From the NCBI GenBank assembly GCA_000004695.1, contig CM000155.2:2144001-2208000 (forward strand): a DNA stretch of 64,000 bases. Reading direction: 5' to 3'. A program made the position numbers and the translations under genes. Of this stretch, positions 29,470 to 35,826 are shown piece after piece (the first letter of the stretch is position 1; every line of letters starts with the position of its first letter). This DNA is from Dictyostelium discoideum. Its lineage: Eukaryota. Below the pieces are notes generated by a model, which saw only the letters and a list, made by a program, of their open reading frames with translations, was not told the origin of the DNA and did no database searches.

Positions 29470-30426
29470 TTAGTTTTGTAAATATGGTAAAGTAAAGTTT
29501 GTAAAGTATGGTTTGCAATAATCTTCAATTGGGTGATCACGATGAGTGCAAGTTGTGGTATAGAAGAAAAGACGATTTGATTCATCAAGAGTTCTTAAAC
29601 CTAACCAATCTTCAGAGTATTGTGTTTGTTGTTGTAATGGAACAACTTCTGTACCACTACCATCAGCATAAAAACTGAACCAACCAGATTCTTTTGGAAT
29701 GATGGTTTTATCATTTGTACTATAAGTGAGAACCATAGCATTTAATTTTGTGAGATTTTCTTTATAAGTTGTATTTTTAACTTGATATTCATTATTAATA
29801 TCTGCTAAAAAGATTGATCTTTCAAGATATTTATCAATTCTATGTGGACTATATATACATAAATATATAAATAATTATTTTTTAATTAGTATTGGTAGTT
29901 TTTTTTTTTTTTTTTTTTAAAAATTATTTAAATACTCTTTCCAATATTCAGCAACTGAAAGTTTCTTTTGAATAGTTTTTTCATATGGAATTGTACCAAG
30001 TACCTTATCAACCCATGGAATATTAACAAATGGAGTACCGAATTGACCACCTTGTGGACCATTCCAACTAATATAATTGTATACTTGTGGATTATTATAA
30101 CGTTGAACGAATGCACGAGCAATTAAAGTACCTTGGCTGAAACCAATTAAATTGAAACCATTTGCTAATTTTGGATCGGCTTGGACAACTTGAGCAAATT
30201 CTTCAATTTGTGAATCCATAGTAGTGAAAATTGAATCAAATGCACCATTTCCAATTTCAACATTTAAAACATAAATATCTGGAATAGATTCTTCAATCCA
30301 AGATTTTAATGGTTCCATTGATTCTTTACCAGTTGTAACACCGTGCATTAATACAACTGGTCTGGTGGCACTAACAAGTGCAATTGCTAAAGCAATTAAT
30401 AAAATTAAACTTGATAAAATTCTCAT
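29470..30426 (-). CDS. Palmitoyl-protein thioesterase (PPT1 family, alpha/beta hydrolase). Two exons, complement(29470..29848, 29936..30426).
   Basis: Signal peptide MRILSSLILLIALAIALVSA. Text shows the conserved VLMHG and GFSQG lipase motif (NLIGFSQGTLIARAF). Donor AAA GA|GTATTT (29935..) and acceptor tatatag (29850..29849), phase 2, give ...AEYWKD-PHRIDKYLERSIFLADINNEY, matching PPT1 AEYWHDP...SIFLADIN. The C-terminal exon contains track ORF 29470..29736. Confidence 0.85.
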
Positions 30427-30517
30427 CCTCTATCTCTCCTATCTCTTGCTAACTCCTCGTAAATAAATACAACAAGATATTAGTAGTACAAAAAGTGATG
30501 GGTTATATATTCGAAAA

Positions 30518-30548
<31 letters not shown>

Positions 30549-30714
30549 GAAAAGGAAAATTTTTGATCAAATTTTTTTTTTTTAAAATTTTATTTTTTTT
30601 TTATTTTTATTTTTTAAAAAGTTTGATAAAATTTTGTGACTGTTCGAAAATTTTTTTAGTGTGGTTTTTTTTTTTTTTTTTTTTGGTGGGTTTTGTTATG
30701 ATTGAAAAAAAAAA

Positions 30715-30730
30715 AGTGCAAATTTGCACT
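30715..30730. promoter_or_regulatory. Perfect 16-bp palindrome AGTGCAAATTTGCACT just upstream (minus-strand sense) of the palmitoyl-protein thioesterase gene start. Candidate regulatory site.
   Basis: It is directly visible, self-complementary and flanked by poly(A)/poly(T). It lies about 290 bp from the PPT ATG (30426). Confidence 0.2.
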
Positions 30731-30779
30731 GGTTTTTTAAAATTTACCTCCTCATAGGCTCTTTTTTGAAAAAATTTGC

Positions 30780-30823
30780 AAAGTATTTTGTATTCCAGAA
30801 TCAGTGCTCACTAATCTAGTTTG

Positions 30824-30867
<44 letters not shown>

Positions 30868-32040
30868 CCAACTACTATTAAAATACTCAATTATATAATT
30901 TCCAAAACAATAGTATTAATAATAGAAATAACATCATTTTATAAATTAAAATTCTGTTTTAGGTAAATCAAAATAATAATTGTAAAACTCACACAGCATA
31001 AATTAACCTATTAATTATAGTTTACTTTTCTTAAAAGGATAAACCAACAGTGTATTTATAATCCAAATACAGATGTTATGAATTATTAATGTCATTATGT
31101 TTCTATGCCCAAGTTCTTGGTGTGTCATAATTTACTCAATAAAATTTTAAAATCAAAATTCTGAATTAGATAATCTAAACTAAAATAATTTCTTTATTTA
31201 ATACAAACCAAATTAATAATTTTATTTTAAAAAATTAAAAATTCATAAATAAACCTATTTTTAATTCCTTTAACGGAAAAACATTGGTTAATAAAATTAA
31301 AATAAAAAACCTTTGAGGATACCTATCTAGGTTTTGAATACTCTTTTTGAGTTTGGAGTTGTCCTAAAAACTCCTATTTGATCGGGTAGTTTTTGATGAA
31401 TCGTACCAATTCCTCTTCCATATGAACCTGTGATGTTTGAGCTTTTGCTACCTCTGTAAAGCTCATTATGTTGTTTCCTTTTGAATATTCATAATCGGAA
31501 AATTGGATCTATAAAGGGTGTCATGACCAATTGGTGATGAATATCAAAAGAAATAATCGAATTGACAGAGATTGTATGAAAGAATGGAATGCTTTTGGTA
31601 TATTTCTTTTATTCTTGACACTTTGGATAAGTAAACTGGGTTTACAAATTCCTTCATTCCCTCAATTTAAAAATCCTTCATTTTCAAATGCATACAAATT
31701 AATGTGTGGTACGTGTGAGTTTTTGGATTTAGGATCTGTGGATAGAAAAAGGTACTAATAGAAATATCTTGATAAGATTGATCAAATGAGATAAAAATTG
31801 ATGGAGTTCGAACTAGAAAATATAAAAACAAAAAATTCAAAAAATTTTCAATATATCCAATCAATTTCTATAAAACAAATAATTAAATTATGAAATTAAC
31901 TTGAAAAGTATATTGTATTCCAAAATCATTGCTTCCAAACATAGTCTCCATTGACCAATCCATCTAATTAATCATAATTTTATCAATCAAACATTTTGTG
32001 CATGGCCACCATCAAACGAACGGTTTCGGGTAAAAAAATT
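30780..32040. mobile_element. Compositionally distinct ~1.2-kb block immediately upstream of the tRNA-Tyr gene. Possible remnant of a tRNA-gene-targeted retroelement (TRE5-like), tentative.
   Basis: Unlike the flanking intergenic DNA, this block has few homopolymer runs and near-balanced complexity. It ends in gggtaaaaaaa about 15 bp before the tRNA. No long ORF is present (only 75- and 65-aa fragments). Amoebozoan TRE elements are known to insert close to tRNA genes. No sequence identity could be checked. Confidence 0.2.
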
Positions 32041-32054
32041 TTAATTTCATCAAA

Positions 32055-32137
32055 CCGGCTTTGGCGCAATGGTAGCGCGATTGACTGTAGTTATAATAGT
32101 GATCAATCGGTTGCTAGTTCGAATCTGGCAAGCCGGA
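32055..32137 (+). tRNA. tRNA-Tyr (anticodon GTA) with an 11-nt intron after position 37.
   Basis: Acceptor stem CCGGCTT pairs with AAGCCGG. The D-arm is GCGC-AATGGTA-GCGC. The anticodon stem/loop is ATTGA-CTGTAG-[intron TTATAATAGTG]-A-TCAAT. The T-arm is GCTAG-TTCGAAT-CTGGC. The discriminator is A. It is followed by cttttt, a Pol III terminator. Eukaryotic tRNA-Tyr genes characteristically contain introns. Confidence 0.9.
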
Positions 32138-32471
32138 CTTTTTATATGGACACCAAATCGGCGCATGTTCGATTCCATAATCAAACAGCTTAACAAGTTT
32201 TTATAATATTAATTTCTTTCTTTTTGAAATTTACTAAAAACCTCATGAATAAATAAGCGACATACATTAACAAATTAAGTTTCATCACTAATAATAATAT
32301 CACTGATAAAAAAAAAAAAAAAAAAAATAATAATAATTAAAAAACAAAAAAAAAAATTCTGGTGGTAATAATCGAAATAAATAGAGTCCAAGGTTTTACA
32401 ATAATTTATTTTATAAAAACAAATAATCCTATATGAATGTTTTTAAAAAACTGATTAATTAATCATTTTTA

Positions 32472-32681
32472 TTAATGGTTTGGACATCCCACTGCACATT
32501 TTTCATTGATATTTTTGCAATTTAATTTGTCTGATTGACTGTGTCCAATGGCCCAAAATTTAAAATAATCTGGATTAGCATTAGCACACTTGGCGATACA
32601 GCCAATTTTATCTCCATTTACTGCATTCAAATTTGATAGTAATGAGAATATCACTAAAATAGTTACTAAAATTTTTAACAT
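32472..32681 (-). CDS. Small secreted Cys-rich peptide (69 aa, signal peptide plus 6 Cys).
   Basis: ATG ORF MLKILVTILVIFSLLSNLNA|VNGDKIGCIAKCANANPDYFKFWAIGHSQSDKLNCKNINEKCAVGCPNH. It has a hydrophobic signal sequence and a mature part with a regular Cys spacing. No homolog was recognised. Confidence 0.45.
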   Translation of the reverse strand: MLKILVTILVIFSLLSNLNAVNGDKIGCIAKCANANPDYFKFWAIGHSQSDKLNCKNINEKCAVGCPNH

Positions 32682-32820
32682 TATTATTTTTATTTTTTAT
32701 CTTTTTTTAAAAAACCATTAATATATAAATATATTTTAAAGTTTTTCAGATATTTATTTTTTACCTTTTGAAAATTTATTCCTATTATTTAATAATAAAA
32801 TATAAAATAAAAAAAAAACT

Positions 32821-32872
32821 TTGAATTGCAAAAATATTAATGAAAAATGTGCAGTGGGATGTCCAAACCATT
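32821..32872 (+). repeat. Inverted duplicate (~50 bp, one mismatch) of the 3' coding end of the Cys-rich peptide gene (partner at about 32478..32530).
   Basis: Plus-strand ttgaattgcaaaaatattaatgaaaaatgtgcagtgggatgtccaaaccat at 32821.. is the reverse complement of 32478..32530 (atcaatg versus attaatg). It encodes the same NCKNINEKCAVGCPNH on the opposite strand. Confidence 0.8.
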
Positions 32873-32907
32873 TTTACAAAATATTAATGAAAAATTCTAA
32901 AAGCCAT

Positions 32908-32941
<34 letters not shown>

Positions 32942-32998
32942 CTTTTTTGATTATATATTTTTTTTTTTTTTTTTTCTAAACAATTTTAATTTTATTAT

Positions 32999-34975
32999 TT
33001 ATTTTTTATTTGTTGATTTTTTAATTGAATAAAAAATAAAACTTAAATCAAATGACCATTTTTTAGTTAATGAATTTCTATCATTTGGACCGAAATGACC
33101 AGAATCATCATCAATACCTAATAAAATGAGTGGAGAATTATTATTATTATTATTATTATCATCTCCATGTGTTAAAGATTTTAATTTATTTCTTAATTTA
33201 GCAACCCATTTTAATGGTTGCCAAAATGGTACACGATAATCACTAGTTGAACATGTAATATAAAGATTTGGTAAAGATTTTAATGATGATTGAATATTTG
33301 GATCATCTAAAAGAATGTATGGATCGTATTGTTTGATATAGTTGAAAACTTGTTTATCCAAATTTGGATTACCCCATTCACCATATTCATGAATTGTCAA
33401 AGGCAATGATTCATCTAACATTGAGGTTAAAACATCGGCAAATGGAACTTGAGAGATAATTCCACTGAAATAATGAGGATAGGTCAAGGCAACATTACAC
33501 ATTAACAATCCACCAGCACTTGAACCTCTACCAATTAAATAATTTGGACTTGTGTATTTATTTTCAAATAAATATTCAACGCAATCGATATAGTCAGAGA
33601 AAGTATTCTTCTTATTCAAAAGTTTACCATCATTATACCAAGTTCTGCCCAACTCACTACCACCTCTAACATGTGCCCTTGCAACAATAAAACCAGCATT
33701 CATCAAAAGCAAATCCTCAACATTATACAATAGAGAATAGACAGTGCCATAGGAGCCGTATCCGTGAAGTACACATGGTGTTTTGCCATCGAATCTGACT
33801 GCTTTTTTATTGTAACAAATTGATAATGGTATTTTAATTGACGGATCTGATTTTGAAGGTACCCAAAGTATGTCAGTTTCAAAAGCGTCTGGATTTATAG
33901 TTAGAGGACCTCTTTCAATTGATTCACCCAGTATAGTAATCGTTCCATCCTTTAGGGAAATCTTTGTACGAATTACATTTTGAGTTGGTGTACAATATGA
34001 TAAAAAGAAATGCTCATTATTTTCATAGCCCCCATTAACACCCATTGACAATTCAATGATTTTATGTGGAAATGTTATAATCTTTTCTAAAGATTTATCA
34101 AATCGATTTGTTTCTGCATTTTTAGAAATTATACGAATTCTTGGTTGAAACTTGTGTAAATCATTCAATACTAAATAATCTTTATACATATCAACATCTT
34201 TTATCATTGATTGAGCCTCTGAAGGTATAAATAATTCTAAATCATGAAATTTACCATTTTCAATTGTATCCTTAACTTTATAAATATTTAAATCACCCTT
34301 ATTTGCATTTGCAAATATATAAAATTCATCACCATTATGTTCTGCATAATATTCTAAATTATCAACTCTTGATAACATAATCTTATACGATTTCGATGTT
34401 ATTGGTTCACTTGGATTATCATGTAATTTATTATAATAAATTAAAGTTGATATTTTACAATTTGATAAATAAAATATATATTCACCATCTTTTGGAACAT
34501 AAATATCTAAATAATAAGCTGGATTTTCTTCATATATCATTAATTCAGATTGATTAACTTCTTCTTCATTTAATTTAATATTATTTTTAATTGATTTTTT
34601 AAATATCTAAAATAATAATAATAATAAATTACAATTAATTACCTTTTTTTTTTAAACTTATTTATTTAAATTTATAAATTACTACATACTTTATGAGAAC
34701 GATGAAAAACAAGGTCATGTTCAACATAAAACAAATCGTTATTTTTACCCCATTCAATTGAACTACAATTTTTAATTACATCTACAACTGGTGCACCTGG
34801 AATTGATATTTTTTTAATTATACAAACTTTATTTTCACTACTATCAACTTCTGTAACAAATGAAAAAAATGAATTATCCCTTGAAAATCTAAAAACAATT
34901 ATATCTCTTAAATTTATTTCATATCCTGCTATTTTTTCACCATCTGATAATAATAACTTTTTTTATTTATTAGTC

Positions 34976-35067
<92 letters not shown>

Positions 35068-35826
35068 ATATATAGTTGTTTTTACTAAAAATAAACATAC
35101 TTGAGTATAACCATCTGAAACTCTTTGACGGAATAAATTTTTATTTTTTATAATCATTTTATAACCATTTATGATTTCATCTTCATCTGGATGATCAATA
35201 AATACTCTTTTAAAAACTGATCTTAATTTTCTTGATAATGGACTTATATAAGATTTTGTAAATTTATCTTTATATTTATTTTCATTTTCAATATATTTTA
35301 ATACTTTTGGATCTTCAATATTTCTTAACCAATTATATGGATCATTTAAAGTTGTACCATGAATTTCTAATGAATATGGTTTTTGATCTGCAATTGGTGG
35401 TGGTAATGATTTTTTAGGTATTGATACTTTTTCTAAATAATAATTTAAATTACCTTTATTCAATCCAAAATCAAAATCAATTTTTTTTTTATCTTCAAAA
35501 TTTTCAACTTTATCAAGTATCTTTTCTTTTAAATCTGAAAGTAAATTAACAATACTAGAACTATATTTTCTTTTTAATAATGAATTTAATATTATTATAT
35601 TATTATTATTATCATTATTAATTTTATTGATATTATTATTACTATTGAATAAAAGAGATGATGATAAATTTTTTAAAGATATATTATTATTATTGTTATT
35701 ATTATTTTTATAATAATTAATTTTTTGTGTGAAATTTATTTTTTTTGATGTGTATGAATTTAACAAATTGTATTGATTAATCACACCCAAAGTTGATGAT
35801 AAAGGTTGAACTCTGAAAGATTTCAT
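32999..35826 (-). CDS. Oligopeptidase B / protease II-like serine peptidase (family S9A). Three exons, complement(32999..34606, 34690..34956, 35101..35826).
   Basis: Exon 1 (ATG 35826) ...PYSLEIHGTTLNDPYNWLRNIEDPKVLKYIENEN matches the S9A N-terminus. Donors are CAA|GTATGT (35100) and AAA|GTATGT (34689). Acceptors are aaaaag (34958..34957) and ttttag (34608..34607). All are phase 0 and frame-checked to ORF 32999..34540. The catalytic region is GGSELGRTWYNDGKLLNKKNTF...GRGSSAGGLLM (GxSxGG nucleophile), with ...DDDSGHFG later. Intron 1 contains a long (ATT)n run. Confidence 0.85.

Follow-up and report, generated by a model that had tools for sequence, protein, structure and literature searches.

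The inverted repeat at the DDB_G0292970 locus of Dictyostelium discoideum, in which the 3′ end of a small cysteine-rich peptide gene recurs on the opposite strand, is probably a by-product of DNA rearrangement, left by a junction-templated fold-back or template switch, and not a designed RNA element; we put the probability of this reading at roughly 60%. The odd repeat can thereby be explained, mainly as a matter of correct bookkeeping, as a rearrangement scar that has affected the annotation and probably the promoter of the peptide gene. The window, by which we mean the whole 64,000-nucleotide (64 kb) stretch that was analysed, is the AX4 sequence at this locus on chromosome 6, from which the annotated 103-aa model can be rebuilt exactly; it has 23% GC and contains poly-A/T and poly-Asn tracts. 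Positions are those of the window, and the features discussed are collected in Table 1.

Table 1 Features at the DDB_G0292970 locus and its surroundings.
Feature	Positions	Strand	Remarks
Block restricted to D. discoideum sensu stricto	30749..32889	.	~2.1 kb; arm 2, promoter, peptide gene, tRNA, 1.1-1.3 kb unique DNA
tRNA gene, 11-nt intron	32053..32138	+	Rfam tRNA 57.8 bits; convergent with peptide gene, 334 nt from its stop
Small secreted Cys-rich peptide CDS, DDB_G0292970 short form	32472..32681	-	69 aa + stop
AATAAA signal of peptide gene	32473
Arm 1: last 17 codons (L53-H69) + stop region	32472..32525	-	Weak extension to 32455, 3′UTR
Promoter/5′UTR region, conserved among family	32682..32820	-	Includes T-run 32809-32818
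Arm 2, inverted copy	32821..32889	+	Outer end = breakpoint 32889/32890
‘Exon 1’ of annotated 103-aa AX4 model	32820..32871	-	Antisense reading of arm 2 (MVWTSHCTFFINIFAIQ)
18-nt direct repeat AAAATATTAATGAAAAAT, second copy	32878..32895	+	First copy 32831-32848 inside arm 2
Oligopeptidase B (S9 family) 3′ exon, upstream neighbour	32999..34540	-	5′ exon 34963..35826

An inverted copy at 32821..32872 had been reported in an earlier note on this DNA, and it is real, matching 32474..32525 on the other strand. The single mismatch given there holds for the 48 nt encoding NCKNINEKCAVGCPNH; over the full 52 nt there are two, both of them synonymous (L53 TTA/TTG and I58 ATC/ATT). A pattern search of the 64 kb returned exactly two sites, the copy and 32474..32525 on the opposite strand, and such a match appeared in 0 of 100 dinucleotide shuffles. 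The pair is the strongest inverted repeat with a GC fraction of at least 0.25 in the 64 kb and the sole local one. A chance origin is ruled out by the shuffles together with the status of the pair as the sole complex local inverted repeat in the 64 kb. A repeat search extends the arms to 32455-32525 and 32821-32891 (71 nt, 89% identity, separation 295 nt); the 3′UTR extension is poorer than the core (6/19 versus 2/52 mismatches, Fisher p = 0.004) and may not be true homology. Read on the plus strand, the core of arm 2 (32821-32874) gives LNCKNINEKCAVGCPNH with no stop, while its tail (32875-32889) may be either a diverged copy of the 3′UTR or a second short templated stretch. Further copies of the peptide or of either arm were found nowhere in the 64 kb.

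The copy had been described as lying downstream of the gene, which is so only in plus-strand coordinates. Because the peptide gene is on the minus strand, the copy is actually upstream, 139 nt before the ATG, in the 317-bp spacer that separates the peptide gene from the stop codon of oligopeptidase B (32999). The intergenic spacer has 14-16% GC, and arm 2 is its sole GC-rich island (GTGCAGTGGGATGTCC). A spliced plus-strand exon derived from the copy was also considered and rejected: the frame is open only from 32806, and it has neither an AG acceptor nor an ATG.

Orthologous loci were fetched via the neighbouring oligopeptidase B (S9) gene. An independent assembly, L006 (GCA_054883475.1), is 99.86% identical to the window over 8.5 kb and differs only in homopolymer lengths; its arms, gene, promoter and tRNA are identical, which rules out an assembly artefact. 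Two more distant assemblies share one pair of breakpoints. L002 (GCA_054859385.1, labelled D. discoideum), with flanks 90-96% identical, aligns to 32890 and resumes at 30748, with 228 bp between, and L007 (GCA_054859205.1, ‘D. cf. discoideum’), with flanks 85-96% identical, has ~225 bp between the same points. D. firmibasis (L003) carries a spacer of about 370 bp at the corresponding site, and in D. purpureum (L004) synteny with the window ends at the peptidase gene. The block 30749..32889 is present in L006 and missing in L002, L007 and L003. The comparison across related strains and species that the earlier note had proposed gives the same division for the inverted copy, which is found in L006 and not at the orthologous site of L002, L003 or L007. 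Neither a tRNA gene nor a family member occupies this position in L002-L004, and the ~225 bp interval of L007 is too small for either. The spacer motifs GAAG..GATCAA(A)GTTTT, GGAATCAATTAATT and AGTGAGATTGGTA are common to D. firmibasis and L002/L007 and missing from the window; because D. firmibasis shares them with L002/L007, the short spacer represents the ancestral state. The block itself is derived, gained along with the loss of part of the old spacer.

The earlier note had offered a recent partial duplication or inversion as one way to account for the copy, and this is supported: the copy sits exactly at one of the breakpoints that bound a ~2.1 kb segment specific to the lineage. The arms have diverged by 3.8%, less than the 5-10% that separates the window from L002/L007, which fits an origin after the lineage split. 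The species-specific insertion relocated a tRNA gene along with a secreted-peptide gene. The source locus of the block was not found in the sequences searched, and DDB_G0293324, the one further paralogue on chromosome 6, has a protein identity of just 80%. The block also includes an A-rich tract; its unique DNA (30960-32050, ~1.1 kb) reaches 34% GC at 31300-31800; it has no ORF of more than 75 aa, no Pfam match in six frames and no similarity to the sequences compared. As a side observation, the L002 assembly (ACTFIR) is only ~88-95% identical to AX4 here, much like the ‘D. cf. discoideum’ assembly L007; despite its label ‘Dictyostelium discoideum’, L002 probably represents a lineage separate from D. 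discoideum sensu stricto.

The right breakpoint, 32889/32890, is sharp, and arm 2 has its outer end at exactly this point. The left edge is blurred by a T-run and lies between 30749 and about 30960; since 30827-30960 aligns weakly to the ancestral spacer, it may be nearer 30960. At its inner end (32821), arm 2 adjoins the end of a conserved upstream unit of ~140 bp, so that both ends of the arm fall on structural boundaries. Identity of the upstream sequence to two L001 paralogues is 76-78% across 32609-32818, and to L005 it is 86% across 32757-32812. In the L001 paralogues the unit starts with CC(T)TATAAAAAGGAT followed by a T-run, and the window keeps the T-run at 32809-32818. The window gene lacks the distal TATA box (CCTTATAAAAAGGAT) seen in the paralogues, and arm 2 stands in its place. 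Inverted copies of their own 3′ ends are present at neither of the paralogous loci L001 and L005, and arm 2 is nearest to the local gene (50/52, versus ~85% to the 3′ end of the L005 gene). A similarity between the ancestral spacer and TCAAAGTTTTTTTTT, from the inner end of arm 2, was set aside, as it is not significant (z about 2.2) and homology to the family promoter explains it equally. Further along the upstream sequence, the L001 paralogues share AAAAG/GTAAAA ... TTAATAG/ (slashes marking the boundaries), a candidate 5′UTR intron; the window gene (32716-32765, minus strand) has TTAATGG at that acceptor position, with the AG lost.

We propose a plausible series of events by which the scar could have formed. 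First, a ~2 kb block carrying the tRNA and one member of the peptide family would have come to lie some 110 bp beyond the oligopeptidase B stop codon, its arrival in the D. discoideum sensu stricto lineage displacing part of the ancestral spacer. At the oligopeptidase-side junction, repair or replication synthesis would then have switched template, either by fold-back on the incoming DNA or by a strand switch. This step would have copied ~52-54 nt of the 3′ end of the peptide gene in reverse, possibly with a second short templated stretch next to it, and the junction would finally have been closed by joining the flank through A-rich microhomology. As a consequence, the peptide gene would have lost its distal TATA element, and gene prediction would have been misled into taking the antisense of the copy as exon 1 of DDB_G0292970. 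A 52-bp near-perfect stem would arise only in rare transcripts that start upstream of the copy.

Several features of the locus bear on this proposal. The locus shows no target-site duplication and has lost ancestral spacer, a combination typical of break repair and not of transposition. The reverse-complement copy lies near its template, at 295 nt, and mutations in which a template switch leaves such a copy close by form a documented class (PMC5453318, PMC8794818, PMC10710096). As in template-switch and fold-back mutations, a reverse-complement copy ~300 bp away is lineage-specific, could form a near-perfect stem and is free of transposon hallmarks. Published template switches, however, are mostly of tens of bases and occur in place (PMC5453318, PMC8794818, PMC10710096), whereas here a copy of 52-70 nt lies at the junction of a 2 kb insertion and the event is one that we infer. 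At the junction, the 18-nt direct repeat straddles the breakpoint, and its last 6 nt, AAAAAT, are ancestral flank; the repeat is AT-rich, its significance is weak and it may have arisen by chance. AAAAAT is common to the gene sequence and the flank, and being A/T-rich is likewise of weak significance. With these weak statistics, the junction sequence gives a hint that a second stretch was templated and that the join used microhomology. That both arm mismatches are synonymous is also expected under weak selection on coding or pairing, and with two changes it carries little weight.

Arm 2 could instead be the remnant of a full family gene that once stood head-to-head with the present one, a deletion having taken its 5′ 155 bp and promoter and left the last 17 codons. 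The family does evolve by local duplication and decay, as the tandem copies at L001 and the pseudogene fragments at L005 illustrate, and arm 2 keeps the reading frame with only synonymous differences from arm 1. However, the family duplicates seen at L001 and L005 are all in direct orientation and none is inverted, so that a head-to-head arrangement is unseen. The deletion end would also have to coincide with the edge of the upstream unit and the fragment end with the insertion breakpoint, two coincidences that such a remnant requires, and the arms are 96% identical, far above any two family members (33-80% pairwise identity in protein). We consider this origin unlikely.

The earlier note had further pointed to the tRNA gene as a favoured location for retroelement-mediated rearrangement, which our comparison does not support, as the tRNA came in the same segment as the peptide gene. 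TRE5, TRE3 and DGLT-A are tRNA-gene-targeted retrotransposons of Dictyostelium. The locus resembles their insertions in that rearranged DNA adjoins a tRNA gene with an external B-box-like motif. It differs from them in that no frame contains a remnant of a reverse transcriptase, endonuclease or integrase, that a target-site duplication and repeat copies are missing, and that the tRNA gene lies inside the inserted block instead of being a pre-existing target. A search for retroelement protein domains found no Pfam domain in six frames of 30749-32054, and an Rfam scan of 30400-33100 returned the tRNA only. A dispersed repeat family, which according to the earlier note would make the overlap with the gene coincidental, is not seen: the sequence occurs in two copies in the 64 kb and in none of four related loci (~90 kb). 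A dispersed repeat or transposon was rejected on these grounds, as neither the window nor the loci fetched for comparison have another copy, the scan gave no Pfam domain and a target-site duplication is lacking. The anticodon of the tRNA depends on intron placement, being Tyr(GUA) with the intron at the canonical 37/38 and Asn(GUU) with the 34/35 intron of ARAGORN -i; ARAGORN without intron mode gives a 4-base anticodon. Beyond the 3′ end of the tRNA, at a distance of 28 nt, GTTCGATTCC (32167-32176, plus strand) resembles the internal B box GTTCGAATCT (32117-32126), and we take it to be like the ‘external B box’ found downstream of many Dictyostelium tRNA genes.

A long-stem hairpin in read-through transcripts of the peptide gene had also been suggested, through an error of strand. 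Because the gene is on the minus strand and the copy lies upstream, a read-through peptide mRNA would be extended in the opposite direction, toward the tRNA, and cannot reach the copy. Both arms are contained only in a minus-strand transcript that starts upstream of 32891, through oligopeptidase B read-through or an upstream start. The AATAAA/ATTAAA poly(A) signals of oligopeptidase B lie at 32990-33010, at least 100 nt before the copy, and the T-run/TSS region of the family lies downstream of the copy; poly-T tracts are typically located upstream of D. discoideum TSSs (PMC6161686). A terminator structure, proposed alongside the hairpin, fails in its bacterial form on three counts: the host is a eukaryote, the copy precedes the gene and the loop measures 295 nt.

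The RNA from 32905 to 32440 (32905..32440), with the arms paired, has a predicted folding energy of −124.5 kcal/mol, versus −72.9 ± 5.6 for shuffles (z = −9.3), and the arm duplex alone is predicted at −75.4 kcal/mol. At 52 nt with 2 mismatches, the arms are long and similar enough for a Dicer substrate. The inverted-repeat structure is conserved neither in the paralogues (L001, L005) nor in the sister lineages (L002, L003, L007), and 10-mers of the arms are absent from the supplementary text of two D. discoideum miRNA papers (PMC6161686, PMC11014262). A dsRNA role is possible, if unsupported and geometrically disfavoured. A functional hairpin locus would have upstream minus-strand transcripts form a 52-bp stem and give rise to Dicer-like siRNAs that silence DDB_G0292970, making it a nascent hpRNA or proto-miRNA. 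The very stable predicted fold, the active RNAi and miRNA machinery of D. discoideum (PMC6161686, PMC2175303) and the annotated 103-aa AX4 model, which would put both arms in one mRNA, are in its favour. Nonetheless, the copy is upstream of the probable start site of the gene, the poly(A) signals of the neighbour precede it, the 103-aa model is implausible, the repeat is unconserved, the loop is 295 nt long and the arm sequences are not in the miRNA supplements searched; we regard this reading as very unlikely. Should it be correct, the locus would give a rare view of a small-RNA gene being born, but nothing found points there. Highly improbable, in our view, is a newborn self-targeting hairpin, in which occasional oligopeptidase B read-through would yield a 52-bp dsRNA whose siRNAs silence the relocated peptide gene. 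If it held, it would represent early birth of a hairpin-RNA or miRNA gene by template switching in an amoebozoan, with the founding gene as one arm.

Hairpin loci born from the inverted duplication of a target gene are envisaged in the plant MIRNA origin model and known as hpRNA loci in Drosophila. The repeat described here is like them in being an inverted partial copy of a protein-coding gene with extended complementarity to it. In plant MIRNA and Drosophila hpRNA loci, a single transcription unit contains both arms, and small RNAs have been documented. Here, by comparison, the gene itself serves as one arm, its partner is located upstream of the promoter, and the repeat is unconserved. For the rearrangement scar that we favour, we infer that the potential stem is without function.

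The 69-aa ORF at 32472..32681 on the minus strand, as described in the earlier note, is borne out, and it bears on how DDB_G0292970 should be annotated. The introns of the 103-aa model measure 38 and 50 nt, both with GTTTTT donors; its extra 37 N-terminal residues have no homologue in 5.8 billion proteins; and the extension displaces from the N-terminus a signal peptide that is near-invariant in 10 aligned members. A newer D. discoideum annotation calls no gene at this site, and an MLK/MLR start is found at the ATG equivalent to 32681 in 9/9 relatives. Because of the short GTTTTT introns, the shared start ATG, the homologue-free extension and the lack of a newer gene call, we prefer the 69-aa reading as better than the 103-aa model, exon 1 of which is probably an annotation artefact. 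A correct 103-aa model, with a genuine coding first exon read antisense to the copy, is scarcely credible: the model does reproduce exactly from the window, with GT..AG introns, and is present in RefSeq and UniProt, but it needs 38/50-nt introns with GTTTTT donors, destroys the N-terminal signal peptide and adds an extension without a homologue. The reference model of DDB_G0292970 is thus probably wrong, and the protein is 69 aa and not 103 aa.

Relatives of the peptide were sought in two ways, with a profile against 1.84 billion representatives and with a word index against 5.8 billion proteins. On AX4 chromosome 6, the 69-aa ORF matches DDB_G0292970 (103 aa) and DDB_G0293324 (69 aa, 80% identity). 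The profile and word searches together gave a family of ~11 relatives, all in D. discoideum (AX4 chromosomes 2, 3 and 6 and a new assembly), and no Pfam family covers these peptides. The relatives, 63-74 aa long, combine a near-invariant signal sequence (MLKFLIAILVIFSLLSNLNAVNG) and six conserved Cys with a mature part that varies. The family alignment comprises 10 members, the window gene and 9 relatives. The N-terminal signal pattern, MLK(F/I)L(I/V)(A/T)ILV..SLLSNLNAVNG, is present in the window gene, and the putative signal peptide is judged from the hydrophobic N-terminus, nearly invariant across the family. In the Cys framework C-x3-C ... C ... C ... C-x3-C, the window gene has 5 of 6 positions, with W43 at the third, and is the sole such member aligned. 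The peptide therefore has five Cys (28, 32, 55, 62 and 66) and not the six counted in the earlier note. The family alignment was used to build an AlphaFold model of paralogue P0002 (pLDDT 78), in which the mature part forms three short helices, and a PDB search with this model gave no significant neighbour (best E about 7).

Expression is documented for several relatives, and beiC/cupC and its kin are peptides of late development found in stalk and cup (PMC6198379 supplements). DDB_G0282455 is beiC (formerly cupC), with 17,637 TPM in stalk, 978 in cup and 0.4 in vegetative cells, and DDB_G0281757 and DDB_G0281753 are likewise in the stalk-specific list (PMC6198379 supplements). Three relatives are thus in that list, whereas the window gene is not; DDB_G0292970 and DDB_G0293324 are absent from both the cup- and the stalk-specific gene lists (PMC6198379 supplements). 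A search of literature full texts and supplements for DDB_G0292970 and DDB_G0293324 found no mention. The family is an uncharacterised, fast-evolving one of small Cys-rich secreted peptides, with beiC among the most abundant stalk-cell transcripts.

G/C-rich boxes are regulatory elements in AT-rich Dictyostelium promoters. The copy might accordingly have been co-opted as a cis-regulatory element at the TATA position of the paralogues, where it might now be bound by a factor or determine where transcription starts; this would agree with where it lies relative to the conserved upstream unit and with its being a GC-rich island in a spacer of 14-16% GC. The presence of three relatives in the stalk list and of DDB_G0292970 in neither the cup nor the stalk list accords better with impaired than with rewired expression, and we hold such co-option to be exceedingly unlikely.

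The window gene shares the signal peptide, size, Cys framework and ~140 bp of upstream sequence with the beiC/cupC family; it differs in missing the third Cys and the distal TATA, and in being located in a lineage-specific insertion. By sequence it is homologous to the family (E 1e-20 to 1e-37), as an atypical and possibly decaying member. The odd Cys count and the missing TATA element suggest relaxed constraint or decay of DDB_G0292970 after relocation. Codon 43 (32553-32555) is TGG (Trp) in the window gene and Cys in 9/9 aligned relatives, which leaves an odd number of Cys.

The paralogous loci yielded further observations. L001 (10001-12786) holds three tandem copies, one of them truncated. 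The annotated 129-aa ACTFIR_000464 (L001 10001-11596) fuses two tandem family genes, one at 10001 and the truncated one at 11450, and the third family copy, at 12577-12786, is intact and lacks annotation. L005 contains a beiC orthologue (5001-6215 region), followed by a decayed 3′-half copy at ~5600-5750 and a decayed 5′ fragment at 6138-6215. The stop/3′UTR sequence of the 3′-half copy, CATTAATAAAAATGATTAAT, is identical to that of the window gene. A tRNA-Ser(GCT) gene at L005 6365-6447 provides a second instance of a family member close to a tRNA gene.
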